Of a DNA stretch of 64,000 bases, positions 18,254 through 39,310 are shown in pieces. A program made the translations under genes and the position numbers. Source of the stretch: a phage; the NCBI GenBank assembly GCA_032986305.1, contig GCA_032986305.1_3672.1; one strand, written 5' to 3'. The notes beneath the pieces were generated by a model. It was given only the letters and a program-made list of their open reading frames with translations. It was not told the DNA's origin and did not search any database. Position 1 is the stretch's first letter. Each line of letters opens with the position of its first letter.

Positions 18254-19297
18254 TTAAGCATAAGATATGGTGATCCATTGACCGTTTACAAATTTTTGAA
18301 TAGCTCCAGTCCAATAGTCGCCCTGATACGGGTGTTTATAGGCGTAATTGCCGGAGCACATTACATGCCCAGGGTATACTCTTGATTCTCTGTAGGTGGT
18401 TCTGAAACGGTTTGCTATCCTTACATCTTCAACACCCCTACTAGGCATAGGAATAGTAAGGTTACCACTACTGTCTGCGCTACTACCATTTACCCTGCGG
18501 ACCACGTTTCTTCCACCAACTGTTGCATATTGACCTCTGGCGGTTTTATCGTTACAATCTACTCTTCCACCTATTTGAGCGCTTCCGCAGGATTGTTGTC
18601 CGTTAACAGCGGCTCTTGGTATTGTGACCGCATTGGCATTTGCAGAGGAACTTTTTGCATCGTTGCATTCAAGATTCCCTTGGATAGCCAGTCTTGCACG
18701 GTTGGCAGTTATAGCATTGAGCTTCATAGCCGAAAACACAGGCTGCCCACCAGAAGGTTGAAATCTCCAACGGAACCCGTCTATTTGGTGAGAAGGATCA
18801 TCAAGATCTGTGCCGTCAGCACCACCGATGTTGTCCATAATCCAGAAATCCATTGTCGTCTTGTCTGGAGTTATGGTGGTGTATATCGCCGCATTGTCTG
18901 TTGACGCGGATGCAAACTCGATTCTTTGAAGACCTAAAGTTTGAGTCTGGATCATTGTGTCTCCAGCCTTGTCAACATAAAGGTCATCCATTTCTTCAGG
19001 TGAGTATACATTGAGAACTTGACGTGCAGCAGCTTTGTCTGGAACGTCTGCCAGATTATTAGTGACCCTTAAGAATCTATTATCCCATCCTGGGACAACA
19101 TCTTCTGTTAAATGCTTTAACCACGCAGAAAGCATGTGAAGTTCAAAGTTAACAACTTCACATGCCACTCTTTGTGTCATATCCCAACCTTTCAATCTCT
19201 CTTCTTTTTTTGGTTGGGACTTATTCAATTCTCCCGTATTTTCAAGCACAACATCCTGATTGGCCCAAATATCAAGAGGGATAACTGGTTTAGTCAT
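18254..19297 (-). CDS. tail fiber protein, paralog A (347 aa)
   Basis: N-terminus PLDIWA and C-terminus QKFVNGQWITISYA shared with the 20312..21352 product; GDTM motif typical of fiber shafts; divergent central part. Confidence 0.6.
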   Translation of the reverse strand: MTKPVIPLDIWANQDVVLENTGELNKSQPKKEERLKGWDMTQRVACEVVNFELHMLSAWLKHLTEDVVPGWDNRFLRVTNNLADVPDKAAARQVLNVYSPEEMDDLYVDKAGDTMIQTQTLGLQRIEFASASTDNAAIYTTITPDKTTMDFWIMDNIGGADGTDLDDPSHQIDGFRWRFQPSGGQPVFSAMKLNAITANRARLAIQGNLECNDAKSSSANANAVTIPRAAVNGQQSCGSAQIGGRVDCNDKTARGQYATVGGRNVVRRVNGSSADSSGNLTIPMPSRGVEDVRIANRFRTTYRESRVYPGHVMCSGNYAYKHPYQGDYWTGAIQKFVNGQWITISYA

Positions 19298-20311: not shown

Positions 20312-21352
20312 CTATGCATAATTAACAGTGATCCATTGACCATTTACAAGTTTTTGTAAAGGTCCTGCCCAGTAGGTTGAACCACGCATCTCTTTTTTGT
20401 CACCGAAATGCCAGCCTGTGACAACGTAGCCGTTGCGGATGGGAGATTCAGAAACGCCGTCCACAAGTCTTGCACCGATTCTGATGTCTTGCACACCTGT
20501 CTGAGGGATAGTGATCGTTACATCACCGTTACCGTTAGCCGTCACTCCATTCACGGAGCGCACCACATTTCTGTTACCGACAACACAGTGCTGGCTTCTT
20601 ACAACCATACTGTCACAACTTGCACCACCATTAATATATACTGATCCAGCCGTCAACTGACTAGCCACATTACAGTTGGTGAATGTTGCTGTATTGCTGA
20701 TAGTAAGGTTATTGCACCTCATGTTATCGACAACTTCAACATTGCCGACCACTTTCAACAACGCACGGTTAGCCGTGATCGCGTTAAGGTACATCAAAGT
20801 GAACTCTGGATTAATATCCGGCTGAGTTGGCTGGAATCTCCAACGAAACGCATCTACTGTAGATGTACCACCATCATCAAACGACCCAATATTATCACTT
20901 AACCCGAAGTCGAGAGTTGTCTTATCTGGGCCAATAGTTGTCTCTATCCAAGCCTTATCTGTCTCGGCAGCTTTAAAGTTGATACGTTGCAAACCCAATG
21001 GGCCTGTCATTGTATCACCTGTAACTTTTACATACCTGGCGTCTGCCTCTTCCTTAGTAATAATCCCAAGGTTTCTACGGGCAACAGGAATGTTCAAAAG
21101 ATCACTCAAGTTATTATCACGTACCAGATAACGGCCTTCTTGAGCGGGGATCTGCTCGTCAGCAATGTATTTTGCCCAAGTTCCGAGCATATTGAAAATA
21201 TAGTTAAGTTCTTCACATGAGGGCTTTTGACCAAGATCCCAACCTTTTCTCCACAAATCATCAATCGGGCGTAGCCTGTTCTGTCTGTGGGTGTTAGGCA
21301 GAACCTGATCCTCCTCTGCCCAAATCTCTAATGGAAAACTAGGTTTTGACAT
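20312..21352 (-). CDS. tail fiber protein, paralog B (346 aa)
   Basis: Shares PLEIWA N-terminus, GDTMTG motif and QKLVNGQWITVNYA C-terminus with paralog A. Confidence 0.6.
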   Translation of the reverse strand: MSKPSFPLEIWAEEDQVLPNTHRQNRLRPIDDLWRKGWDLGQKPSCEELNYIFNMLGTWAKYIADEQIPAQEGRYLVRDNNLSDLLNIPVARRNLGIITKEEADARYVKVTGDTMTGPLGLQRINFKAAETDKAWIETTIGPDKTTLDFGLSDNIGSFDDGGTSTVDAFRWRFQPTQPDINPEFTLMYLNAITANRALLKVVGNVEVVDNMRCNNLTISNTATFTNCNVASQLTAGSVYINGGASCDSMVVRSQHCVVGNRNVVRSVNGVTANGNGDVTITIPQTGVQDIRIGARLVDGVSESPIRNGYVVTGWHFGDKKEMRGSTYWAGPLQKLVNGQWITVNYA

Positions 21353-25625: not shown

Positions 25626-25693
25626 GTCACTCCTCCGGTATGAAAATCTCTACAAGGTATTTTACCAAATTTTGTAACAATAGTCAATCTGAG

Positions 25694-25722
25694 CATAAAA
25701 ATAAACCCCGCCGAAGCGGGGC
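25694..25722 (-). terminator. rho-independent terminator
   Basis: Minus-strand hairpin gccccgc-ttcg-gcgggg followed by TTTATTTTTAT, directly after the 1279-aa gene. Confidence 0.65.
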
Positions 25723-25730
25723 TTTAAAGG

Positions 25731-28700
25731 TTAGTCGTGAGACTCGTTCCAAGGTCCTTGGAAGCTTGAGTTAGAACGGCTTACCACAACAGTAGGGCAG
25801 GATATTGCGACCCCTGTTACAGAAGACGTTGACCATGGTGTGTAGATTTCAACAACAATATCTATGGTTTGTTCACCAAGACCTGTTATCCCTACCGCAC
25901 ACATGCCGTTGTTGTCGTTTCCGTACTTCTTACCTGCAAGGATTTGATGTCCGGCTATCCAAACGTTGAGCTGGGAGCTGGCAAGAGTACCATTCAGTTT
26001 AAAGAAGAATGTTACGTTCTTACCCTGACCTGAAACGTTATCTACGTATCTCCACCTCCAACGGCAAACCCTTTGCTGGGAGTTATATACTGGAGCACAA
26101 TCCCCGTAAGTCCTGTGTGCAACAATTGCACCTTCGAACTGGTTAGCACGGATAACAGAAGCTTCTACACGACCACGGAAGGTACCTCCGGTTGCATCTA
26201 TGGTGCCCCTAAAGCTACCATTATTGGCATAAACATCCCCACGGAAGGTACCACTAGTGGCGTTAACTGCCCCTGTGAAGTTACCAGAACTAGCGTTGAT
26301 GTTGCCTTTCACCCACACATCCATAAATTGGGCGTGCCCGTTCTTGTTAATATACCAACCGTATTTATGGTACCCGTTGCCATCGTAGTTGTTTGACGAG
26401 ATTTCTTGTGCGATCTTGGCAGAGGAGATCGTGCCATTCTCTATAAAAGCGTCTTTCAAGAACGCTTGGTTGTTCTTGATTGCGAAAGCAAGGGTTGCTG
26501 TTCCATTTCCTGGGTTGTATACCGCAAAATTGTTTGCACTAACCATGAAGTAGGATTGAACTTGGCCTCCAGACCCTTCCATCCCCAACTGAATACCTGC
26601 AACATATTTATTCCCTGCGGAGTCTACCTGTATTTTTGTGCCCCATTGAGCATTTACTTTACCCTCTAAGTCGGTTACAGCCTTAGATGTTGTAGCTACT
26701 GCAGCCCTGATCTCAGACACATCCCCAACATCATCCATGATCTCCTGCTTAGCAACAGCAAGTTCTTGACGAATAGCTGACGCTGTGCCGTTGATAAGGT
26801 CCACAGTGGCTTTGTTGGTATCGGAAATTGTAGCATCCAGCGCTGTTTTTGTGGAGGTCAGTTTTCCATCCAAAGCATCAATCGCTTGCTTGTTGGTAGA
26901 AATCTCCCCACGTGCAGAAGTTATCTGCTCTGACAGTGCAGATGTTTTCTGATTCAGCAGGTCAGTGGTGGCCTTGTTGGTATTGGCAATCAAGGTGTTG
27001 AGGTCAGTTTTTGCGGTAGTTATCTTTCCGTCAAGGGTGGTATAGTTTTTAGATACCGTCGCGTTTGTCTGACTAATCTTTTGATCCAGAGTTTCAGATG
27101 TCCTGTTCAGAAGATCTACAGTGGCTTGGTTAGTGCTCAAGATGCTTGCGTCAAGTTCTGTTCTCTGAGTATTGATCTTACCATCCAGAGTTTTATCTCC
27201 GGCTAAATACCCGCTCTCAACTCCATCTATCTGCTCTACCAGCTCACCTTTGGCGGCAACCAATTTCTCATCTAAAGCCTCTGTCTTTTTGTTCAGAAGA
27301 TCAGTAGTTGCTTTATTGGTTGTCTCAATCAGAGATGCCAATCTTCCACTTTCAGTGTTCAGATCGTTGGTGAACTTGTTCTGTGCAGCAACAAGTTTCC
27401 TATCCAGCGCTGTGATATTGCCATTGACATCCTCAAACTTCTGAGTTGTCTCTGTAACTACCGCACCTATTCTGTCTCCAAGTTGCTGGAATGCCTCATC
27501 TACCCTACCATCCATGTATTTATTAAGCTCTGTGACACGATTTTCAACCCCTTCAATAGAGGAATCCAAAGTGCTCATCAACTCTTTATAAGTTTCTGTC
27601 TTTTTGAATTCAGCATCTATCTGAGGCATCAAATCCTCGATAGAGGTGTAGCAGCGTGCAGCGCATTCTACAAACTGAGAGCTACCAAAAGCGTTTGTGG
27701 TTCGAATATACCAATAATAAACCTTATCGTTCTGCAGGCCTTCAGATGTCCAAGTTGAACCAACACCCATACGGGTGGCGTTTGAAGTAATGGTTGCATC
27801 ACTGGTATCTGGCAATCTTGTCATCCCAGATGTCCAAAAGTCATACTGGGTGCTTACACTAGCCAAGTCTCTGCTGTGCGGGATCAAGGTGATAGCAAAG
27901 TATCCCTGCTTAACCTCTACAGAAACCGGAGCTTCAGGTGCCTGAATGTTAAACTCGCAGTACGCTTCTGGAGATACACCGCCTTTATAAGATGTTGCAA
28001 CCACGGTTGCTGTGTATGACCCTTTGGTCAATCCTTCTACGCGGACAAACTGCTCGACTGTTTGTGCTGTCCAAATAATCTCTCCGTTCTTTCTTACCTG
28101 CACAATGTTTTGAGCATAAGTCCCAACGTTGTCCCAAGCCAAAACACCGTGCGTCACTTCCCCAGCTTGAAGAACAGAGTATCTGAAGTTTTGCGGTTGA
28201 GCTACACCAGATGGAGATATCGGAATATTTACATCTCCAGAGTCTGGAAGTTGCCCTGTGGCATCATTCCACTCTTTAGCATCTTGACGGAGTTTTACCT
28301 TGACACCGCCCTTTTTGGTGAACTCCCATTCAAGAACCCTCATTTCTTGGCCTACTATACCAATACTTGGAAGGTCCATCGTAACGTAACGCCCAGGTTT
28401 AAATTTAAAACCTCGCATATTGCAGGTTACTTCAATAATCCTGCCAGCTCTGGCACGTCTTAAGAATATTGCAGAAACACGTTGAGCCTGATAAGGACTG
28501 GTAACAAAACGATAATCTATATCAATTATCTTTCTTTCTCCGTCCTTCTCCACCCACTCAGGAACGAACACTGATGGGAAGTCTGTTTCAGAATACCCTT
28601 TGGTTGGACTGGTGAATCTGCCAGTTATTGTGTTGGATCTTTTGTCAAATGAGGCTTCCGGATAGATCTTAACCTCACCACAGACACAGTCCTCACTAAG

Positions 28701-29570
28701 TGTCATTGTTGCCGGACCATAGTATGCACCAACTAGTAAACCATACTTACCAGCAACATAACTAAGATCTGCACCGCAAGCTTTCAGCATTTCTGCCATA
28801 ATACTTGCTGGGGCCTCATCCATGTCAAACTCACCATTAATGGTGTAACGACGCTCACTGGTTCCGTCTGCGTTTCTTACAGCCTCGTCACATATGTTGG
28901 CAGCTTCCTTGAAGGACTCCCAGTTGATAGTTTCGTCGGGACATTTGAGGTACGTTCTTAGATAGTCCAGAATCACCAAGGCAGCGTTATTGGTATACAC
29001 CTCCTTACTGATACGAGGATCATAACATTTTTTACCAACCTTGACGAGTGTAACGTTTGGCAACCCAAAAGGAAACTTGTTAGGGTCAAACTTGAAGCTG
29101 GCACGTAGCCAACTGATCCCTCTGCCTATCATGTCTGGTGACCATGAAGGGCAGTGTGTGCCCATGAAAGGATCAGAGGTTTTCCTGTCGTTATGTAACT
29201 CCCACGATACCAAATCGCCATACGAAGAAATAGGATTACCGTCGATAAGTATATCTTCTATGCCTTCCAAGGGATGATTAGCAAGAACAATAGCACAATG
29301 AAGGGTTCTGTCCCTGTCCTGCTCCAAAAACGCAAGCAATCCAGATGTGCGTGTCTTTCCATATACTACAGAGCAAGGTGCAGCAGAAGATCTGAGAAGC
29401 TTTTGTCTATCTTGCTGACTTCTGTAAGATTTGTTGCCCTCGAAAATCTTATCCAGAGTTCTGGTGGTAACAGTGTTCAGGCTGTCAGCCAGAGCTGCCT
29501 TGGATGCGTTCCAGTCATAACTTGAAGATCTTGCAGAAGCAACGATGTTATCAATCATTGCAATTGGCAT
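25731..29570 (-). CDS. lambda gpJ-like central tail fiber / tip attachment protein (1279 aa)
   Basis: Segments recalled as gpJ-like: YRFVTSPYQAQRVSAIFLRRARAGRIIEV, FN3-like YDFWTSG ... VYYWYIRTTNAFGSSQFVECAA, and KYVAGIQLGMEGSGGQVQSYFMVSANNFAVYNPGNGTATLAFAIKNNQAFLKDAFIENGTISSAKI; long coiled-coil in the middle. Confidence 0.65.
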   Translation of the reverse strand: MPIAMIDNIVASARSSSYDWNASKAALADSLNTVTTRTLDKIFEGNKSYRSQQDRQKLLRSSAAPCSVVYGKTRTSGLLAFLEQDRDRTLHCAIVLANHPLEGIEDILIDGNPISSYGDLVSWELHNDRKTSDPFMGTHCPSWSPDMIGRGISWLRASFKFDPNKFPFGLPNVTLVKVGKKCYDPRISKEVYTNNAALVILDYLRTYLKCPDETINWESFKEAANICDEAVRNADGTSERRYTINGEFDMDEAPASIMAEMLKACGADLSYVAGKYGLLVGAYYGPATMTLSEDCVCGEVKIYPEASFDKRSNTITGRFTSPTKGYSETDFPSVFVPEWVEKDGERKIIDIDYRFVTSPYQAQRVSAIFLRRARAGRIIEVTCNMRGFKFKPGRYVTMDLPSIGIVGQEMRVLEWEFTKKGGVKVKLRQDAKEWNDATGQLPDSGDVNIPISPSGVAQPQNFRYSVLQAGEVTHGVLAWDNVGTYAQNIVQVRKNGEIIWTAQTVEQFVRVEGLTKGSYTATVVATSYKGGVSPEAYCEFNIQAPEAPVSVEVKQGYFAITLIPHSRDLASVSTQYDFWTSGMTRLPDTSDATITSNATRMGVGSTWTSEGLQNDKVYYWYIRTTNAFGSSQFVECAARCYTSIEDLMPQIDAEFKKTETYKELMSTLDSSIEGVENRVTELNKYMDGRVDEAFQQLGDRIGAVVTETTQKFEDVNGNITALDRKLVAAQNKFTNDLNTESGRLASLIETTNKATTDLLNKKTEALDEKLVAAKGELVEQIDGVESGYLAGDKTLDGKINTQRTELDASILSTNQATVDLLNRTSETLDQKISQTNATVSKNYTTLDGKITTAKTDLNTLIANTNKATTDLLNQKTSALSEQITSARGEISTNKQAIDALDGKLTSTKTALDATISDTNKATVDLINGTASAIRQELAVAKQEIMDDVGDVSEIRAAVATTSKAVTDLEGKVNAQWGTKIQVDSAGNKYVAGIQLGMEGSGGQVQSYFMVSANNFAVYNPGNGTATLAFAIKNNQAFLKDAFIENGTISSAKIAQEISSNNYDGNGYHKYGWYINKNGHAQFMDVWVKGNINASSGNFTGAVNATSGTFRGDVYANNGSFRGTIDATGGTFRGRVEASVIRANQFEGAIVAHRTYGDCAPVYNSQQRVCRWRWRYVDNVSGQGKNVTFFFKLNGTLASSQLNVWIAGHQILAGKKYGNDNNGMCAVGITGLGEQTIDIVVEIYTPWSTSSVTGVAISCPTVVVSRSNSSFQGPWNESHD

Positions 29571-30007
29571 TAATACCTCCAGACATCAACAACGATAGAA
29601 TCTTTCATATCGAACGTAAAGATCCCTTTATCACCTTTCGCCCAAATCTGGTTGTTCCAAAACACACCAGCGGTGAGGCCGTTCAGACCTTCGAAAATAA
29701 CAATATCACCACGCTGGACCTGTTTAGGAGTATCCAGTCGAGTCAAAAAGAGATCAAAAACAGTAGGTAGGTGTGTGGTTTTGAAACGAAGCATGCACCA
29801 TCTCTTGCTTTCCAACTCTGTTTTATACGTTCCTTCAAAGTTAGAAAGAAAATCTGTTCCGTATTGGGCATCAACACACTTAGCAGCAAAAGTGCAACAA
29901 TCGTGGAATCCCCATTCAAACGGGACGGTGGCTTCTTCGTCAAATACTTTCCACAACCTTTCTTGCCAGTCTACTAAACGAGGATGTGTGCTCATTAAAC
30001 CTCCCAA
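29570..30007 (-). CDS. hypothetical protein (145 aa), possible peptidase-like tail-tip protein
   Basis: WGFHDCCTFAA and RGDIVIF are weakly NlpC/P60-like; no clear catalytic His. Confidence 0.35.
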   Translation of the reverse strand: MGGLMSTHPRLVDWQERLWKVFDEEATVPFEWGFHDCCTFAAKCVDAQYGTDFLSNFEGTYKTELESKRWCMLRFKTTHLPTVFDLFLTRLDTPKQVQRGDIVIFEGLNGLTAGVFWNNQIWAKGDKGIFTFDMKDSIVVDVWRY

Positions 30008-30561
30008 ATGATCGGGCGGCTCGCCACCTGATCTACATATTTAAAAAATCTGTCATTATCGTTTCTTGAACTATGGCTTTCCTCTGTGTATCGATAAGGA
30101 AAACCTCTTAACCAACTGTTGAAGATGGAAGAGATGGATATGGACAGAGCACTATTCTCCCCTGTCTGAATAGCCATGTCTGTTATAAGGCCGTCAAACA
30201 AGCCATTAGTTGTGACAGGTAAACCATTCTCCATAGCGGTGATATATAACGTGGCACGGCAACCAGAGTACTCCGTCTTCAGTAGATCGCCAACATATTT
30301 AGGATCAAACCCGTTCAATGTTGCTACCACAGATCCGAAGTTGGTGGCATCTTTCTCAGACACAGCAGTCAATGTTGCTGATCCACCTATCCCTATAAAA
30401 TGTTGCCCCTCAATAACCACAACACCAGTTCCTGAGCACACCCTGACAGTCCCTGTTGGCAGCTCTAGCTTTGCAGCAATTAAGATCTCAACACCATCAA
30501 GCTCTAGCTTTTCAAGAAATAAATTATCTAATGGCGCTCTTATCATCTTAGAAATCCTCAA
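29995..30561 (-). CDS. hypothetical protein (188 aa)
   Basis: ORF overlapping neighbours in the same orientation. Confidence 0.4.
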   Translation of the reverse strand: MRISKMIRAPLDNLFLEKLELDGVEILIAAKLELPTGTVRVCSGTGVVVIEGQHFIGIGGSATLTAVSEKDATNFGSVVATLNGFDPKYVGDLLKTEYSGCRATLYITAMENGLPVTTNGLFDGLITDMAIQTGENSALSISISSIFNSWLRGFPYRYTEESHSSRNDNDRFFKYVDQVASRPIIWEV

Positions 30562-31138
30562 AGAAGTTGATAACTATATTATCACCTTTCTGCATAGCAT
30601 CAACCTTTTGCTTAATTTTATAAAGATCTCGGATATGAAATCTACCCTTCGGAGATTGAGTTATTATTTTCATGGTATCCCCTGCGGCAATAGGTTTCCT
30701 AAGTCTTGGGGATATGTTTATAACAGCGGCCCCAACACCATCACTTCGTACTGAGGCTGTCACCACTTTCAACTCATCATTGACAGATATTTTATCCCCA
30801 GCTCTGGCTATATCCCTGTTAGGCTCCCAACCAACCGTCTTCAAAAAATCGTCGTTACCAGTTGGTCCAAGAGCGATTGGCTCGTTGGAGGTCACTGAAT
30901 GCCCATAAGCCTTGATAAGAAAAATATTTCCATCTTTGTAAACCTGATCAACAAAACTTTTAAGCTCCAACAACTGAGACTCGCTGATATTGGAAACCGT
31001 CAAAGTGCCTTTCCAGTTAGGCGTGGCATAGGTGACTTTTTGCGTCTTACCTGTAAACGGGCTTTTAAATGTAACGATGTCTGCCAGTAGCTCCAGTCTA
31101 ATATCTGGAAGGTATCTAGGCCTTTCCCATAAAAACAT
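30548..31138 (-). CDS. hypothetical protein (196 aa), possible minor tail protein
   Basis: ORF; weak resemblance to lambda gpM-like minor tail proteins, from memory only. Confidence 0.35.
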   Translation of the reverse strand: MFLWERPRYLPDIRLELLADIVTFKSPFTGKTQKVTYATPNWKGTLTVSNISESQLLELKSFVDQVYKDGNIFLIKAYGHSVTSNEPIALGPTGNDDFLKTVGWEPNRDIARAGDKISVNDELKVVTASVRSDGVGAAVINISPRLRKPIAAGDTMKIITQSPKGRFHIRDLYKIKQKVDAMQKGDNIVINFFEDF

Positions 31139-31200
31139 TGTGCCTCCCGGTTAACAATTATGATAGTTATTTTACCAGATTTTAAGTTAATACGCAATAC

Positions 31201-31226
31201 AAACAAAAAGCCCCCGCCGAAGCGAG
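31201..31226 (-). terminator. rho-independent terminator
   Basis: Minus-strand hairpin gccctcgc-ttcg-gcggggg followed by CTTTTTGTTT; loop and stem closely resemble the 25694-25722 terminator. Confidence 0.6.
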
Positions 31227-31235
31227 GGCAATACT

Positions 31236-31568
31236 TTAAAGTGCTTCCAAGGTAGATACTGATTGGTCGAACATGTTCAACCTTATCGGATCTACAACTT
31301 TTCCGCTTTTCGAGACGATGTTTTCTGCATCCTCGTCTAGAGCCAGAACGTTGACATAAAACAATTTACTTTTCTCGCAAACTGGGTAGACAACCATGTT
31401 GCCAAACTCGTCCTCGGCCTCATAAGTGTCTTCAGTTTCTGTGTAAATGAGCCCGACAACCTCTACAAGAAGGGTGTTTTGCAACACCTCATTCTCGTAA
31501 AAGCCGATTTCGTCCATGAAACCATTAAAATCCTCCCTGTCAGTAAACCCAAGGGTAAAAGTATTCAT
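31236..31568 (-). CDS. hypothetical acidic protein (110 aa)
   Basis: ORF, start overlaps the stop of the 1479-aa fiber gene. Confidence 0.4.
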   Translation of the reverse strand: MNTFTLGFTDREDFNGFMDEIGFYENEVLQNTLLVEVVGLIYTETEDTYEAEDEFGNMVVYPVCEKSKLFYVNVLALDEDAENIVSKSGKVVDPIRLNMFDQSVSTLEAL

Positions 31569-34500
31569 TATTCAACACTCTCCATCATAAGCTGGGTGTC
31601 TGTCAATGCAGAGTTCCAAACTCTTACATCTTTAATATGACCAAACAAATGTCTTTCTCCTGTCGCTGTTTGACCGCCGAGACGGATGAGAGCGCCTCCT
31701 GCCAGGAATTCCCAAGAAGATTGTGTTTCCGTGCTCACCAGACCGTTGGCAAAAGAGCAGGTTTTACCATCTTCTTTTATCCTGAACCCCATCTTCAACT
31801 TACGTGCTTTAGCCATCTCATAAACACGTCTGTTTGAACCACCAATATCGCAATATGGATAACCATCTTCTGCAATATTCGCTGCAGAGCCAAACCCCAT
31901 GATAAATGCAGCGCCGGATTGATGACCCTCTGTATCAATAACCCTAGGAGCTGCGTTAGGAGCTTTTCCCCAACCTCTCCAGTTGGCATCCACAGTAGCG
32001 GCGATGGTGAACGGTCTAGGTGCTAAATTATCAGTCATTGGGAATTTACAAAGGTCTGCTGCCCTAGTCACTGGTGAAGACCCTGTAGGGATAAACGAGG
32101 ACTCACAAGATCCTAACTCAAACTGAGGTATTGCGACGTCAATCCAATCCCCTGCGGCGTGTTGAGAACCCTCCGGCGGGGCAATCTGGAACTGGCACCC
32201 AATATTCATGTCAGAGGCCACTGCCTCAAACGTAGCAACAACCCTTATCCAAGCAGGTCCGGCTGTTTGCCATCTCTCAGCTTTTACTTTAATTCTCCCG
32301 GCTGCACCACCTGTTGTTTTAACTTCAAGTGTTGACAGGTTAACATAGGCATCACCCTGGAATACTGTGGTGGATCCGTTATACATGTCGAATCTTACAC
32401 GCAGTCTCTGGTGAGCTTTACCACCTCTTGCAATAATAGATCCAGTACAAAATTTCTCAGCACCTGTTACATCTGCACCTCGGGTGGCTGGAACTGTAGC
32501 CAGGTTTAACGCCGTTGTTTCTACACCGGATACGTTGCTTACTGTAAATCTTGCACCTTTTGTGCCGTTGGTGTTTGTTACAGTGTTGCCGACCGTAATC
32601 TGTGACTGGGCTCCCCATTTGCTCGGGTCTTCACTGTTAAGCATCAGATTTGTCCTTTGACCTTCAATGAGCAGACCATCTCTTTCGAAACGTGGTTGGT
32701 TTGCCTGTGCAACAGCCATGACACCGCGCTTAGTGAAATATGTTGCTGTAGAAGGTCTGGAGAACACCATCTCACCTTCACCTAGTACAGGTTTTAGATT
32801 AGAGGTTAAAGGCAACCACAGGTCAGGCATGACTGGGGCAGTTGTACTTTCTGGGAAGCTCGTTCTCTTCCAAGGGCTCCAGTTCATTCCGCTGCCAGTG
32901 TTATTATAGTACCTTTCCCACGTTCCCCCAAGATACATTTTATATATCTGGACACAACCTGTACCTTCGTTGGCAGAGTTTCTAAGCACGATCAGCGTAC
33001 CAGCCATCTGCTGCCCTGGTGGGTAGTGTCTTTCCGCTGTGGCGTTGGCATTTGCCTCTTGATGGTAAATACCTTCGCGATCCGCTTTGTAATCGTTAAG
33101 GTCACTAGTCCCCAACCCTTGACCACGGTGCTGAATAACTTTGTTCCACGCTCTGTGGTTACCCTGCTCTATGGAACGGGTGTACAGCTGATCTAAACGA
33201 CCTGCCATCTGGAAAGCATAGTTTCCAGAAAACGCCACAGACAGACCGCCAACAACCATCGAACCTTCTGGCCCGTTGACGTTGCCAGCCATTATTTTGG
33301 ACGGATTATTATTTCCGAACTGGTTGTTCCAGTCTGCACCTGTGTGGCATACAAAACCACCAGGGGCCGAGAAAGTACCGTCTTTGTTGAAATTGTAGAA
33401 TCTGTGAGCGGAACCTACAACATCACGAACAATAACTTGACCAGCTTCTGGAGTAGACCTGAACTCTGCTTGGCCTTGGAGGCCAGCACCATTGCCGCAT
33501 TTAGAGGTAAACGTACCGTTAGTCAGGTCATCTGTCCCATCCGATGCGCACTGGAATCCTGCATTAGAGAATAACGCCTTTCTAGGACTGCCGTAGCACA
33601 AATAATCAATACCGTCTGCCCATAGCTCGACTTTTGGCATGTTCATTTTGCTCATCACCGCATAGCGTTCAGCAGTGCCTATATAGTGCCACTGTGTGCC
33701 GCCACCAGTGTAGAACCCAGAGGTACCTTTGAAGTCAACAATAGGTCTGGTGTTGGTATTGTTATCTCCAAGAACAGCCAGATTTAAATCTGCTGACTGG
33801 AGAGGTGCAACGAACTTAACACCGTCCTGATTGTTTGTTACAGAGCCAACTTGATAATCTTGCTCTCTGGTAAACACTTCGACAACATTTCTACTTGCGT
33901 ATATGCTGACAGGGAAAGCACGAGCCTCTGCATAGAAAGCAACATACTCTTGTTTACCCCTTGTCGGAGCAACCATCCCAAGAAGTGCTTTTTCATTTTG
34001 ATAGAAATTCACTACCCCGTAGAAAGAGTCCCCTCTATCTGTCCAACCGCCAGTTCTATAGTGGCACTGTAAGGTGGCGCAGTTCATAGGGTCACCGCCA
34101 GATGACGATCTGGTGACTAAGGTAATATCAGTGCCAGTTGCTGGAGCATAATACGGATCTGTTCTAACGATGATTGGGTAATATTTCCCATCTTCCATCC
34201 CTGCAGTTCTTGGCAGTGTTAAGAAATCTTTGACACCCGCAGCTATAGGAACTTTGAACAGATTCTGAGCATCTGCCAGGGTTGTAGCCCCTGTACCACC
34301 TGCAGCTTGAGGTAAAGGCTCCCACTTGGCCTTCCGGTTGTTATAAACACCCCACTCAAGCGTTCCTTCACCTTGCTCGTCCATACCGCCATCCCAGATG
34401 ACCATCTTGGCGGCTTTCTTAGATCCCCAGAAACCTCTTTCTGCTCCTGAACTGCGGATCCATTCTCCAAGTCCCCAGTTTGCCATCTGACCGTTCAGAT

Positions 34501-36007
34501 CACCAACCTGCATATATTTAGGACAATCTAAGACCCCATCCTCACGGAAACCTAAATATCTATGAGTTTCAGATCCTTTTGCACCTTTGTGCAGGTGGAT
34601 TGTTAACCACGCCCTATTGTCGTTTCTTACCTCGGAGTAGATCCTATAACCATGTTCAAGAACACCATCGGTGTTATATTTATCCCCATGGAGAATACCT
34701 GAAGCAGATTTAACATCTCCTGAGTATTGAGCTAAGTAAAGGTGCCCGAAAGCAGGGGAGTTGTTTTTACCAAGGCCGATATGAGATCTGAAGGTGTCAT
34801 CATTCCGAGGTCTGACCATCGGCTGCCATGCAGTCCACTGGTTTGTGTTGGCCTGATAGGTTCTCAAATACCAAACATCCACGTTAGAGAATGGATAGTA
34901 TTCCTGACGACAGCCTGTGCCACCGTTAGCATTGTTCTGCCAAACAATCAGGTGACCAGCACCAGAACCTGCAGGATAACCATTTGCCTCAGTTGCATTA
35001 GCAGTCATCGGCTGGTAGTATATGCCGTCCTGATTACCAGTCAAGTTATTGATATTGAAATTTTCCTCAAGGGCTGCACGTTGCTTATAGAAAGCACCGA
35101 TATTGATACGGACTCCAGCAGCATCTCTGGCTCCTGTACCGCCTTGCTCTATAGCAAGAGGTTGCCACGAGGCTGTTTGTTGGTTCCACATACCCCAACG
35201 ACCTGCTGCATCAAGCTGCAAGTACCCTGCCGTGTTTAAATCATCTCCGGCACGGATAACTGTTCTTGTTGGGTTGTTTGCCTCCAGGCGTTTAAATTCA
35301 TCACGAAGTGCTATTCTTTTTGTTGTTGCTACACCGTTGGTTACTGCAATGGTATACATGGCTCCAGAGGTAGCGCCACGGAAAACACCATCAACAGTCG
35401 TAGTATCACGACGAGATACCACACCGTTCAGAAATTTTTCACCAGCTGCTTCAGAAGGGTAGTTAGTAGTTCTTCCCTCTTCAATAACTGCAGGACCAAC
35501 AAAGTTGACAAGGTGAATAACATCACCTACAGTATGCACTGTACCAAAATCTACCCGCTGTGCAAGCGCTTTAGCATCGTTGGCTGTCTGAACCGTAACA
35601 TCCATTACATCCTGTACAGACTGCCCCTCGGCTGTCATGATCATAGATGCGCCAATGGTAGACTCCAGCTCCTCCCTTAAGGACGGGTCTGTATACACCA
35701 TCCATGCAGCGTCGGTGATCCCACCGTCAGAGTATGGTGAAGACAGTGCAGGAACAGTATGTGGAAATTCGCCTTTCCAACGCAGGTAGAGGTCTTCCTC
35801 TTCGAAGTAGGCAAAATCCATTGGGCCGTTTAACTTACCACCTTCCTTAAAGGAGATTACATGAGAAACAGTCCCATCCACATGGACAACATCGCCAATT
35901 TTTACACGACGGGTCAGGTCTGGTTGTTGAACAACCAGGTAATCATCCTCTGTCACTGCGGTAGTGGCAGGAAGAGATTCAATTCTGACAACTTTAATAT
36001 CAGCCAT
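31568..36007 (-). CDS. long tail fiber protein (1479 aa) with shared N-terminal attachment domain
   Basis: N-terminal about 100 aa homologous to the 38642..39310 product (DDYLVVQQPD..TRRVKIGDVV / FKEGGKL..DFAY); internal GGTGATTLADAQNLFKV and QGGTGARDAAGVRINIG fiber-type repeats; AGGAG before ATG. Confidence 0.65.
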   Translation of the reverse strand: MADIKVVRIESLPATTAVTEDDYLVVQQPDLTRRVKIGDVVHVDGTVSHVISFKEGGKLNGPMDFAYFEEEDLYLRWKGEFPHTVPALSSPYSDGGITDAAWMVYTDPSLREELESTIGASMIMTAEGQSVQDVMDVTVQTANDAKALAQRVDFGTVHTVGDVIHLVNFVGPAVIEEGRTTNYPSEAAGEKFLNGVVSRRDTTTVDGVFRGATSGAMYTIAVTNGVATTKRIALRDEFKRLEANNPTRTVIRAGDDLNTAGYLQLDAAGRWGMWNQQTASWQPLAIEQGGTGARDAAGVRINIGAFYKQRAALEENFNINNLTGNQDGIYYQPMTANATEANGYPAGSGAGHLIVWQNNANGGTGCRQEYYPFSNVDVWYLRTYQANTNQWTAWQPMVRPRNDDTFRSHIGLGKNNSPAFGHLYLAQYSGDVKSASGILHGDKYNTDGVLEHGYRIYSEVRNDNRAWLTIHLHKGAKGSETHRYLGFREDGVLDCPKYMQVGDLNGQMANWGLGEWIRSSGAERGFWGSKKAAKMVIWDGGMDEQGEGTLEWGVYNNRKAKWEPLPQAAGGTGATTLADAQNLFKVPIAAGVKDFLTLPRTAGMEDGKYYPIIVRTDPYYAPATGTDITLVTRSSSGGDPMNCATLQCHYRTGGWTDRGDSFYGVVNFYQNEKALLGMVAPTRGKQEYVAFYAEARAFPVSIYASRNVVEVFTREQDYQVGSVTNNQDGVKFVAPLQSADLNLAVLGDNNTNTRPIVDFKGTSGFYTGGGTQWHYIGTAERYAVMSKMNMPKVELWADGIDYLCYGSPRKALFSNAGFQCASDGTDDLTNGTFTSKCGNGAGLQGQAEFRSTPEAGQVIVRDVVGSAHRFYNFNKDGTFSAPGGFVCHTGADWNNQFGNNNPSKIMAGNVNGPEGSMVVGGLSVAFSGNYAFQMAGRLDQLYTRSIEQGNHRAWNKVIQHRGQGLGTSDLNDYKADREGIYHQEANANATAERHYPPGQQMAGTLIVLRNSANEGTGCVQIYKMYLGGTWERYYNNTGSGMNWSPWKRTSFPESTTAPVMPDLWLPLTSNLKPVLGEGEMVFSRPSTATYFTKRGVMAVAQANQPRFERDGLLIEGQRTNLMLNSEDPSKWGAQSQITVGNTVTNTNGTKGARFTVSNVSGVETTALNLATVPATRGADVTGAEKFCTGSIIARGGKAHQRLRVRFDMYNGSTTVFQGDAYVNLSTLEVKTTGGAAGRIKVKAERWQTAGPAWIRVVATFEAVASDMNIGCQFQIAPPEGSQHAAGDWIDVAIPQFELGSCESSFIPTGSSPVTRAADLCKFPMTDNLAPRPFTIAATVDANWRGWGKAPNAAPRVIDTEGHQSGAAFIMGFGSAANIAEDGYPYCDIGGSNRRVYEMAKARKLKMGFRIKEDGKTCSFANGLVSTETQSSWEFLAGGALIRLGGQTATGERHLFGHIKDVRVWNSALTDTQLMMESVE

Positions 36008-38641: not shown

Positions 38642-39310
38642 TTAGATAGCTCCTGCTATAATCAGTGCCCCGTACCAAGTTAGCCCGTTGTCGTAGGTTT
38701 CTAACTTGAAAATATCTGTTGCACCAGCTGTAAATGTTAGGATAGGATCTCTTCCGTATGCCCATTTAACATTATCAGGCCAATAGACTTTGTTGCCTCC
38801 AGAGGTCTGAGTAATGCATACGGTTATAGTTCTCGCCACCCCTTCAAGGCCTTCTGTTTGATTTTCAAAAGAGATTGTGGTATTTGAAGTTAGTCGAACT
38901 TTAAAAGTGTCCGCAACTTCAAGATCCATATCAAGCTGACCACCAATAGATCCGTAATCAACTATTCTGCCAGAAGAAGTTGCAGCAAGCTCCCCAAAAA
39001 CAGACCAGGCTTTTGCAGACACACCCCCAGCACCCTCTACAGTAGAGTCTGGAAGGATTATTTTAGGATAATCCCCGTTCCACGTGTAGTAGCGCTTGGT
39101 CTCTGGGTCATAAGCAAAGTCCTTCTTGCTCTTAAGATAACCACCCTCTGTGAAATAGACTATTTTGGTAATGCTGAGATCGTTGACAACATCGTCAATC
39201 TTAGCCTTTCTTGTCCCATCAGTCTGATTGACAACCAAGAAGTCATCACTCAGGACTGTTTCTGCATCTTCAAGATCTGGAATTGGTATTGTAGGATAAG
39301 CTACAGCCAT
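38642..39310 (-). CDS. fiber attachment-domain protein (222 aa)
   Basis: Homologous to the N-terminus of the 1479-aa fiber; directly upstream of the 865-aa gene. Confidence 0.5.
   Translation of the reverse strand: MAVAYPTIPIPDLEDAETVLSDDFLVVNQTDGTRKAKIDDVVNDLSITKIVYFTEGGYLKSKKDFAYDPETKRYYTWNGDYPKIILPDSTVEGAGGVSAKAWSVFGELAATSSGRIVDYGSIGGQLDMDLEVADTFKVRLTSNTTISFENQTEGLEGVARTITVCITQTSGGNKVYWPDNVKWAYGRDPILTFTAGATDIFKLETYDNGLTWYGALIIAGAI

Follow-up and report, generated by a model that had tools for sequence, protein, structure and literature searches.

A four-gene siphovirus tail-tip module within the contractile-tail baseplate operon of a Vequintavirus

A complete four-gene siphovirus tail-tip module occupies the minus strand from position 31138 to position 25731 of the 64,000-nucleotide stretch of phage DNA analysed here (contig GCA_032986305.1_3672.1 of assembly GCA_032986305.1; "the window" below). 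Named after their counterparts in phage rV5, its genes are gp40 (a Dit ring protein), gp39 (hub HD I), gp38 (NlpC/P60 fold) and gp37 (a J-type hub joined to a central fibre). The best reading of the observations below, to which we give a probability of about 0.6, is that a siphovirus tip complex was acquired and is reused off-axis as an accessory adhesin; a DNA-delivery tip seems to have been converted into an additional host-binding appendage. None of the literature that we found on these phages treats this set of genes as a siphovirus tip.

The phage from which the window derives is a Vequintavirus, an rV5-like, contractile-tailed coliphage; rV5-like myoviruses are 94–96% identical to the window. 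The contractile-tail genes, identified by Pfam among other evidence, include those for the sheath, the tube, TMP_3, a Dit_like tube initiator and a Pam3-type plug, and also a spike N-domain, a Sheath_initiator (gp25-like) protein and a Baseplate_J wedge protein. The myovirus hallmarks named in the original prediction, a P2 gpV-like spike and a gp25-like protein in the same window, are thus real. The cassette lies in the baseplate operon, with the sheath-initiator gene on one side and wedge genes on the other, and the predicted mosaic is confirmed: a siphovirus-type cassette is present in a phage whose contractile-tail baseplate is complete.

The gp37 open reading frame (25731–29570, minus strand; 1279 aa), by its sequence, encodes a true gpJ-type protein. 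Its matches are far above chance: in Pfam, Phage_Tail_Tip at E=1.2e-38 and Ig_J_second at 1e-30; among the PHROGs, number 31 ("central tail fiber J") at E=7e-163; and among PDB chains, lambda gpJ at E=2.6e-28. No Pfam match to PF13550 (Phage-tail_3) itself arose at E≤0.1. The strings on which the likeness had been recognized (RVSAIFLRRARAGRIIEV, KYVAGIQLGMEGSGG...YFMVSANNFAVYNPGNGTATLAFA and, for a partner gene, FHDCC) are every one present. All of the following parts are on the minus strand. Residues 1–47 (29430–29570) form a polar N-terminal segment discussed below. Residues 48–492 (28095–29429) comprise hub domains of the HD II–IV type that are 46–74% identical to those of CAjan J, and the hub profile matches T5 pb3 residues 261–749 (E=6e-22), the T1 tip protein (6e-8), lambda J residues 266–483 (8e-4) and the RcGTA megatron (0.014). 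The FN3 region that had been noticed corresponds to two gpJ-type Ig/FN3 domains at residues 493–652 (27615–28094; Ig_J, E=4e-5, and Ig_J_second), which align with lambda J residues 666–848. They are followed by a coiled-coil stalk (residues 653–956; 26703–27614) of four ~50-aa repeats with weak coiled-coil Pfam matches and the motif TN[KQ]AT[TV]DL[LI]N at residues 751, 813, 864 and 918; this stalk is longer than that of siphovirus J proteins. CAjan and 9g show alignment gaps across it, and a 1199-aa allele has a shorter version. The Phage_Tail_Tip domain (PF09327; residues 957–1097, 26280–26702), the central-fibre stem of lambda J, aligns to lambda J 844–991 and is ~76% identical to CAjan J. 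Residues 1098–1279 (25731–26279), Gly-rich repeats and a lineage-specific C-terminal domain, are 11–16% identical to CAjan J; this domain, presumed to be the receptor-binding end, has no homologue outside Vequintavirus but for one 30% match.

Four small genes had been taken as partners of gp37, with sizes echoing lambda M-L-K-I. All five minus-strand open reading frames (1279, 145, 188, 196 and 110 aa) are found where they had been placed, and the gpJ-type protein does travel with tail-tip partners, but the partner set is three genes and not four, as the 110-aa gene is not in the conserved set. On the minus strand, gp40 (30548–31138; 196 aa) is a homologue of Dit or of the lambda gpM fold (Dit in the fold and profile comparisons), gp39 (29995–30561; 188/183 aa) is a split-hub N-terminal protein (HD I or attachment domain), and gp38 (29570–30007; 145/141 aa) is a DUF6950 protein of NlpC/P60 fold carrying the HDCC motif. 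The evidence for gp39 comprises PHROG 2048 "tail protein" (E=9e-68), a family-profile match to T5 pb3 residues 24–176 (E=1e-4) and a weak match of two family members to PF09931 (hub N-terminal attachment domain); since the gp37 N-terminus matches pb3 261–749, the two proteins together make a split pb3-type hub. The resemblance of gp39 to gpL or T5 pb3 is confined to their N-terminal part, HD I, and gp39 lacks a gpL-type Fe-S cluster because only two cysteines are present. The search for gpM, gpL and gpK families thus yielded a Dit/gpM fold, a gpL N-domain and NlpC/P60 but no MPN domain, and a gpI counterpart is likewise absent from the cassette; the M-L-K-I mapping is wrong. The sizes of 188 and 145 aa are those of the longest TTG-start frames, which exist, but gp39 and gp38 likely start at the ATGs at 30546 and 29995 (183 and 141 aa), each of which has a Shine-Dalgarno sequence; GenBank likewise has 183 and 141 aa.

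The 110-aa gene (31236–31568, minus strand) lies outside the cassette and is an accessory of an upstream 1479-aa lateral fibre allele. It is found in only ~35 Vequintavirus records, has no match in CAjan, and is missing in rV5 and at the loci L013 and L015, whose upstream fibre ends in Peptidase_S74; its remote homologues adjoin side-fibre genes of siphoviruses. We rejected it as gpM, since it is missing from rV5 and the sister lineage and is tied to one upstream-fibre allele. The 1479-aa fibre shares segments that are 35–40% identical with the CAjan lateral fibre gp20.

The cassette is a late transcription unit of its own, with translationally coupled genes and strong terminators at both ends. 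Its 5′ limit is a rho-independent terminator (31210–31229, minus strand; GCCCTCGCTTCGGCGGGGGC then a T-run) that ends the upstream fibre unit of 1479-aa and 110-aa genes and is identical to rV5 t041 (dG −19.8 kcal/mol; PMC3606486, Table S4). Just upstream of the Dit-like gene is the late-promoter core TGGTAAAATA (31168–31177, minus strand; rV5 P040), with the ribosome-binding site GGGAGG downstream of it; the 64 kb hold only four exact copies of this core, each of them between genes and in minus-strand orientation. The 3′ limit is a second rho-independent terminator directly after gp37 (25703–25724, minus strand; AAGCCCCGCTTCGGCGGGGTTT then a T-run), and between it and the wedge gene is another copy of the promoter core (25658–25667, minus strand; rV5 P036).

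Terminators on both sides, as in an inserted unit, and the fact that sister genera live without the cassette might suggest a non-structural passenger, either a decaying recombination remnant or a moron whose role has nothing to do with the virion. The cassette is indeed absent from phi92, and none of its PHROG families is in the virion-protein table of Septuagintavirus W70. Nonetheless, dN/dS is 0–0.054 in all four genes, similar to the wedge genes, over dS values of up to 0.66, and the four reading frames are intact in >100 genomes and in one diverged sister lineage (wedge protein 92% identical), where the cassette is at the same position. Together with a late promoter common to structural genes and the gp37 peptides reported from rV5 virions, this largely refutes the passenger explanation, which we find hardly credible.

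The cassette is collinear with gp15–gp18 of CAjan, the TMP-proximal tail-tip block of the Queuovirinae, at identities of 32, 40, 45 and 54% in order (gp39 and CAjan gp16 being the 40% pair). The gene order TMP-Dit-tail protein-DUF6950-J recurs in seven more siphoviruses beyond CAjan, and an eighth, IME_AB3, has the same order except that a further gene, of 903 aa, separates Dit from the tail protein. Homologues outside Vequintavirus are all <60% identical and all in siphovirus-sized genomes. The true template of the module is the Dit-hub-peptidase-J arrangement of four genes found in Queuovirinae and in RcGTA-type siphoviruses, and not the five genes of lambda.

The N-terminus of gp37 departs from this template. 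Residues 1–47 reach a maximum Kyte-Doolittle value of 0.31 (19-residue window), with seven charged residues in positions 1–40, and match by position (register from profile alignment) the RcGTA megatron's iris/penetration domain, a proposed outer-membrane pore (PMC7296036). Eight named siphovirus J orthologues have a hydrophobic iris/penetration segment here instead (Kyte-Doolittle 1.7–2.5; 0–5 charged residues), as do 72 of 72 IMG/VR loci, a count of the siphovirus-type loci whose J N-terminus was recoverable; all myovirus copies are polar, and in the sister myovirus lineage the polar segment shows 88% conservation. Such a replacement would mean that the hub is no longer a membrane-penetrating DNA conduit. 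This bears on whether the phage could be a hybrid with a siphovirus-type central tip, its lambda-type M-L-K-I-J central-fibre cassette standing at the tail axis, as the presence of gpJ-type domains, a Dit fold, a gpL-like HD I and an NlpC/P60 protein might suggest. However, the phage already has a complete set of its own for the axis (tube initiator, hub, HxH spike and TMP), and homologues of its central hub proteins fill the tail axis in the cryo-EM structure of phi92 (PMC13450770), itself without the cassette. No TMP gene is upstream of the cassette in the window, and the missing parts (gpM in the 110-aa gene, gpI, MPN, the gpL Fe-S cysteines) and the lost penetration segment further contradict an axial tip, which we regard as very unlikely.

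In the published rV5 virion mass spectrometry, gp37 is among the proteins (4 peptides, 4.2% coverage, just one strong fully tryptic match; thin support), so the gpJ-type product, whose absence from particles the original prediction had considered, is listed there. gp38–40 are named neither among the paper's detected tail proteins nor in its Table S5 (parts 1 and 4), which would fit gp37 being alone in the virion as a lateral fibre on some other adaptor, with gp38–40 as assembly-only factors, as reported for lambda gpK. A morphogenetic role would also agree with the faster divergence of gp38 between lineages (58–61% identity; neighbours 84–92%) and with the arrest of tail assembly by deletion of RcGTA g14 (PMC7296036). 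This alternative is unlikely: in the solved tips of lambda (8iyk), T5 (7zhj) and RcGTA (6tba), the J hub domains have Dit and HD I proteins as their structural partners, gp37 retains a whole hub region that would be of no use without them, and the HD I gene gp39 has dN=0 against dS of 0.12–0.29. Moreover, the mass spectrometry found 19 proteins only, so small low-copy proteins are easily missed.

Cryo-EM of the close relatives Bas49 and Bas54 did not identify a gp37 fibre, a point against the off-axis adhesin reading; the density without assignment that it displays, joined to a baseplate fibre (PMC12143355), counts in favour of a place in the virion. The complex might be a virion appendage away from the baseplate rim, on the neck/collar, the capsid or the far end of another long fibre: it does not appear in the proximal part of the baseplate in Bas49 and Bas54, fibre class TC8 bears density without assignment at its distal head (PMC12143355), 70 nm thin fibres are only "occasionally seen" on rV5, and neck or head positions are predicted for other fibres in this group of phages. 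Given that the cassette genes are within the baseplate/fibre operon, from sheath initiator to wedge, we consider such a site rather improbable.

In the off-axis adhesin reading that we prefer, a Vequintavirus ancestor would have acquired the module from a Queuovirinae-like coliphage lineage, with insertion between the sheath-initiator and wedge genes. Assembly would proceed as in lambda, T5 and RcGTA, with a J trimer and a hub trimer under the Dit ring, in this case without tape measure or tube. We know of no precedent for a Dit hexamer without a docking partner. Because the tail axis is occupied by the myovirus's tube initiator, hub and spike, the complex should be off-axis, most likely as one of the baseplate's peripheral fibre sets, where the longer stalk and lineage-specific C-terminal domain would serve as an added host-binding fibre. 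A point against this reading is that the known requirements of these phages on E. coli K-12, ECA/NGR and the LPS core (PMC8594841), leave no need for a further adhesin.

Among known systems, the Queuovirinae block (Seuratvirus CAjan gp15–gp18; Nonagvirus 9g gp65–gp68) has the same four genes in order and size, but it stands after the tape-measure gene and makes up the actual tail tip, whereas the cassette has no TMP; the window J differs in its polar N-terminus, longer stalk and unrelated C-terminal domain. The RcGTA baseplate (PMC7296036; PDB 6tba/6teh) has the corresponding distal tail protein g12, hub g13, peptidase g14 and megatron g15, but the myovirus J lacks iris/penetration character and is distant in sequence, and DUF6950 lacks a conserved catalytic His. 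Relative to lambda gpM-gpL-gpK-gpI-gpJ (PDB 8iyk), the cassette is without gpI, the MPN half of gpK, the Fe-S C-domain of gpL and a LamB-binding domain, its gpM equivalent is twice as long, and the 110-aa gene is unrelated to gpM. In the T5 tail tip (Dit pb9, hub pb3; PDB 4jmq, 7zhj) pb3 is one chain, with separate proteins, pb4 and pb5, as central fibre and receptor binder, whereas the cassette's hub is split and fused to the fibre. Finally, phi92 and the rV5-like myoviruses, with their multivalent "Swiss army knife" apparatus of fibres (PMC13450770, PMC8594841, PMC12143355), share the baseplate core of the window phage and hold interchangeable fibre genes in the same sheath initiator-wedge slot, and the annotation given to gp37 there is lateral tail fibre; phi92 lacks the J cassette, and their described fibres are simple trimers on N-terminal adaptors, whereas the cassette is predicted to form a hub-plus-Dit complex.

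The DNA between positions 25731 and 31568 is 94–96% identical to that of more than 100 rV5-like phages, among them Gotham, V5/rV5 and the BASEL phage EmilHeitz (Bas49), and these relatives are myoviruses of the genus Vequintavirus with genomes of ~137 kb. In the direction of transcription the minus-strand genes encode sheath, tube, chaperones and a 780-aa tape measure protein, then tube initiator, plug, hub, spike and sheath initiator, then a 222-aa protein, an 865-aa fibre, a 1479-aa fibre and a 110-aa ORF, then a cassette of 196-, 188-, 145- and 1279-aa proteins (the last is rV5 gp37), and finally two wedge proteins and more fibres. Pfam matches identify the sheath (DUF3383), tube (KPP10_Orf10), tape measure (TMP_3), tube initiator (Dit_like) and plug (Pam3_gp18), as well as a phi92-type spike N-domain and the Baseplate_J wedge, which is also covered by PHROG 6/4056; the Sheath_initiator match was made on a homologue of the window's 238-aa protein. 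The contractile-tail baseplate of the rV5/phi92 type is thus complete (sheath, tube, tape measure, initiator, plug, hub, HxH spike, sheath initiator and wedge), annotated relatives concur, and these parts are the phage's own. The spike, sheath initiator and wedge matches bear out the claim in the original prediction that myovirus-type baseplate proteins are encoded in the same window.

Elsewhere in the window two paralogous Mu-type short tail fibre genes at 18254–19297 (−) and 20312–21352 (−) encode 347- and 346-aa proteins that are ~44% identical, and a Caudo_TAP chaperone gene lies between them, as in the BASEL description of the Vequintavirinae. Eighteen "Campylobacter phage" records (MG0656xx; host given as Campylobacter jejuni) are 93–100% identical here to E. 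coli rV5-like phages and are probably mislabelled or contaminant genomes.

The 1279-aa gp37, encoded by the last gene of the cassette (31138 to 25731 on the minus strand), had been proposed to be a gpJ-like tip protein, and this proved correct. It matches Pfam Phage_Tail_Tip (PF09327, E = 1.2e-38), Ig_J_second (PF24489, E = 1e-30) and Ig_J (PF24421, E = 4e-5), PHROG 31 "central tail fiber J" (E = 7e-163) and the lambda gpJ chains in the PDB (E = 2.6e-28); PF13550 (Phage-tail_3) itself gave no match at E ≤ 0.1 in the Pfam search. The Ig/FN3 domains followed by a Phage_Tail_Tip stem that are typical of gpJ are both present, aligning to lambda J residues 666–848 and 844–991, respectively. A profile of the first 520 residues of gp37 matches T5 pb3, the baseplate hub protein, over residues 261–749 (E = 6e-22), the T1 tip protein (E = 6e-8), lambda J residues 266–483 (E = 8e-4) and, weakly, the RcGTA megatron (E = 0.014), so the N-terminal hub domains (HD II–IV) homologous to those of lambda J and T5 pb3 are present as well. 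The lambda-type C-terminal LamB-binding domain is absent, the lambda J alignment stopping at residue 991 of 1132, and the C-terminal 160–180 residues of gp37 have no relative outside Vequintavirus apart from one 30% match. The coiled-coil stalk is expanded into four repeats of ~50 aa each. The ORFs, peptides and HDCC motif on which the original prediction was built are all present in the window.

The smaller cassette genes had been likened to the lambda M-L-K-I set, and this likeness holds in part. The likely ATG starts of the two middle genes, which have GGAGG-type ribosome sites ahead of them and a TAATG stop/start overlap, give proteins of 183 and 141 aa. The 196-aa protein is a small Dit protein with a tail-tube fold, the gpM-type feature, although this link was seen by fold search only; the Dit family profile did not match any PDB sequence, and Pfam gave no match for the 196-, 188- or 110-aa proteins. 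The 188-aa sequence as sole query found only three close protein relatives, and families were rebuilt from phage loci; the resulting profile of the 183/188-aa protein matches T5 pb3 residues 24–176 (E = 1e-4), hub domain HD I. When every member of that family was scanned, PF09931 (the hub N-terminal attachment domain) matched weakly in just two. Since the HD I protein corresponds to pb3 residues 24–176 and gp37 to residues 261–749, the two together represent a pb3-type hub split into two chains; the split hub of lambda is gpL plus gpJ (domain scheme summarised in PMC13243795). The 183/188-aa protein does not match PF05100, and it has two cysteines and therefore no gpL-type 4-Cys Fe-S domain. 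The 141–145-aa protein has a papain-like NlpC/P60 fold, its Pfam match being DUF6950 alone, and lacks the MPN/JAB half of gpK. In an alignment of 50 DUF6950 sequences Asp36-Cys37 is invariant at a helix N-terminus, the nucleophile position of the NlpC/P60 fold; there is no conserved His column, and by motif position Thr111 sits at the expected His site. We found no paper on DUF6950. The 141-aa gene and gp37 overlap at their stop and start codons (TAATG), so that no gpI gene could fit between them, and the cassette contains no gpI counterpart.

The fourth small gene of the proposed partner set, the 110-aa ORF at 31236–31568 (−), falls outside it. It is present in only ~35 of ~118 Vequintavirus records, where it goes with the lectin-head allele of the 1479-aa fibre (31568–36007 (−)), and is missing in rV5 and in a diverged rV5-like lineage, where the end of the upstream fibre is Peptidase_S74 and not a lectin-like head. 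Its remote homologues (31–43% identity) are small ORFs adjoining side or lateral fibre genes of lambdoid, T1-like and T5-like phages, and its product probably acts as a chaperone of the fibre or as an adhesin accessory. We considered whether it might be a gpM or a remnant of a tape measure C-terminus and rejected this, given its lack of likeness to the CAjan tape measure protein, its absence from rV5 and the position of its homologues beside side-fibre genes. The 1479-aa ORF was likewise rejected as a tape measure protein, as its Tail_spike_N and lectin-like domains mark it as a fibre. No tape measure gene precedes the cassette: the upstream genes are fibres, and the tape measure gene lies 13 kb away beside the myovirus hub genes.

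Several segments of the 1479-aa lateral fibre are 35–40% identical to the lateral fibre gp20 of CAjan (14292–15380 in the CAjan locus, L003); this is a second adhesion-gene link between Vequintavirus and Queuovirinae besides the J cassette. The 222-aa protein (38642–39310 (−)) and the 1479-aa fibre both open with a Tail_spike_N domain of the TSP1/gp66 type, and the 38% identity of these domains suggests that the two proteins share one type of docking site or compete for it.

Where does such a cassette come from? With the 188-aa protein and the gp37 N-terminus as tblastn queries, Vequintavirus copies were at least 95% identical, and matches outside the genus were less than 60% identical and lay in genomes of 29–83 kb or in T5-like Vibrio siphoviruses. 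The closest relatives are the Queuovirinae of E. coli, and gp15–18 of CAjan are collinear with the four cassette proteins and 32, 40, 45 and 54% identical to them. The order tape measure, Dit, tail protein, DUF6950, J is found in 9g, Tlacuache, two Vibrio phages, Pseudomonas PSA-2T and Roseobacter CRP-823, and the order is unchanged in Acinetobacter IME_AB3 except for an additional 903-aa gene separating Dit from the tail protein; in all, the four-gene order is common to nine siphoviruses, one with an inserted gene. A scan of IMG/VR with a 5-sequence alignment as query added 77 siphovirus-type loci on contigs of 5–81 kb and three rV5-like loci; gene matches in the 77 are consistent with the four-gene order, and the upstream ORF is mostly 800–1165 aa, the size of a tape measure protein.

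The cassette is absent from phi92, and the virion-protein table of Septuagintavirus W70 contains none of the cassette PHROG families. It lies at the same position in the diverged rV5-like lineage, which is represented by L013 (ENA ERZ16268152 scaffold_272), L014 and L015 (GCA_002973135.1 JZQG01000004.1) and is found only in metagenome, Logan and E. coli assembly contigs; the phage collection holds no record at 60–95% identity for the cassette-region genes of this lineage. Its Dit, HD I, DUF6950 and J proteins are 84, 86, 58–61 and 73% identical to those of the window, its J allele is 1199 aa long, and its wedge protein and spike are 92 and 83% identical. The DUF6950 protein has diverged much faster (58–61% identity between the two lineages versus 84–92% for flanking genes). 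A recent cassette swap as the source of the divergent L013/L015 alleles was rejected, the flanking genes having diverged to a similar degree. Since the diverged lineage has the cassette in the same place and phi92 is without it, acquisition was old within the clade and the cassette has been stably inherited.

Several lines of evidence speak for a functional cassette. A strong terminator at 31229–31210 (−) ends the preceding unit (rV5 t041), and a late-promoter core TGGTAAAATA at 31177–31168 (−) lies ahead of the Dit gene with its ribosome-binding site (rV5 P040); a second strong terminator (25724–25703 (−)) directly follows gp37, and a further copy of the promoter core at 25658 (−) lies ahead of the wedge gene (rV5 P036; rV5 signals from PMC3606486 Table S4). 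The exact core occurs four times in the 64 kb (25658, 31168, 46283 and 49805), always on the minus strand, in intergenic DNA upstream of structural genes, and the observed count of one-mismatch matches was reached in 0 of 100 shuffles. Judged from these signals, the cassette is a self-contained late transcription unit. Compared with EmilHeitz, HMD-6 and rV5, dN/dS is 0–0.023 for the Dit gene, 0 for HD I, ~0.05 for DUF6950 and ~0.03 for gp37, and the wedge genes are in the same range. The Dit-like gene (30548–31138 (−)) has a dS of 0.63–0.66 against EmilHeitz and rV5, compared with 0.14–0.30 for its neighbours, with dN near zero; this may reflect a local recombination patch or an older allele.

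The N-terminus of gp37 differs from that of the siphovirus J proteins. All eight named siphovirus J orthologues start with an uncharged Ala/Gly/Ile-rich stretch of ~40 residues with a maximum Kyte-Doolittle score of 1.7–2.5; charged residues in positions 1–40 number none in six, one in IME_AB3 and two in PSA-2T, and CRP-823 J, which carries an N-terminal extension, has five. Both myovirus J alleles share the same MPxA opening residues, followed by a polar segment that scores 0.3–0.4 (maximum for gp37, 0.31), has seven charged residues in the first 40 and is 88% conserved between the two myovirus lineages. The J N-terminus is hydrophobic in 72 of the 72 IMG/VR siphovirus-type loci where it was recovered and polar in all rV5-like loci. 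By the register of the profile match, the polar segment is the positional counterpart of the RcGTA megatron iris/penetration domain (residues 1–46), which blocks the tail channel and is proposed to form an outer-membrane pore by insertion (PMC7296036). A hydrophobic iris/penetration segment of the J/megatron type is absent from gp37, and its polar replacement would fit a signature of changed function.

The original prediction supposed a siphovirus-type central fibre cassette together with a myovirus baseplate. Both gene sets are indeed present, but the phage has an initiator, hub and spike of its own for the axis. Cryo-EM of phi92 shows the tube initiator, hub, spike and tape measure C-terminus filling the axis of the tail (PMC13450770); since the window encodes homologues of all four, the J complex, by analogy with phi92, would be unable to act as the central tip. 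A J3-hub3-Dit6-type complex like those of lambda, T5 and RcGTA would nevertheless still assemble, we infer, because the hub domains are retained and purifying selection on them and on their two partners is no looser than on the wedge. The lost penetration segment, the longer stalk and the private C-terminal domain all fit a role as an off-axis adhesin and not as a DNA conduit, with the baseplate rim, the distal end of another fibre, or somewhere else as candidate mounting sites. We put the probability that a siphovirus tip complex has been reused as an off-axis adhesin at roughly 60%. More tentative is the specific version in which the full complex of Dit ring, split hub and J trimer, its penetration segment disabled, has been exapted off-axis on the contractile baseplate, possibly in six copies and maybe docked through Dit on a trimeric fibre head that replaces tube and tape measure.

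In the portion of the rV5 virion mass-spectrometry data covered here gp37 is included, weakly (4 peptides, 4.2% coverage), and gp38–40 were not found; rV5 micrographs occasionally display thin 70-nm fibres. Only three of the nine annotated fibres could be placed by cryo-EM of Bas49 and Bas54; a density joined to the head of one fibre class was left unassigned, and a Vequintavirinae fibre was noted to have an N-terminus "common in central tail fibers" (PMC12143355). Because these close relatives have cryo-EM datasets, EMD-51868 and EMD-51869, the placement of the cassette products is directly testable.

The cassette parts are known families, already labelled "central tail fiber J", "distal tail protein" and "tail protein" in databases; the original rV5 record noted likeness to tail proteins of siphovirus PY54, and COG4733 comes up in the rV5 paper. 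What is new is how these parts are deployed. We found only passing remarks in the literature, no paper in which the four genes are recognised as an entire siphovirus tip carried by a myovirus, and none noting the lost penetration segment or locating gp37–40 in the virion.

Single fibre genes are commonly exchanged between phage morphotypes. It is not common for a whole tail-tip initiator complex to be transferred and long retained, and the myovirus in question already has a Dit-like initiator, hub and spike. If the exaptation reading is true, this would be the first tail-initiator/hub complex to function solely as an anchor for a side fibre, and a clear case of a whole multiprotein machine crossing tail morphotypes. 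Mounting of the complex on the rV5 baseplate would mean that hub/Dit assemblies are reusable as modular adhesin platforms; the lost penetration segment would then provide a natural experiment separating hub features for DNA delivery from those for structure, and one unassigned fibre set would be accounted for in the rV5-like phages, which are in wide use for O157 typing and biocontrol and in therapy collections. The mounted complex would also be a candidate host-range determinant that present Vequintavirus receptor models ignore.

The cassette shares with the Queuovirinae/RcGTA-type tip its gene order and the pairwise homology of all four proteins. The siphovirus tip block, however, directly follows the tape measure gene, whereas the cassette in the window instead follows a lateral fibre gene, a terminator and a late promoter.
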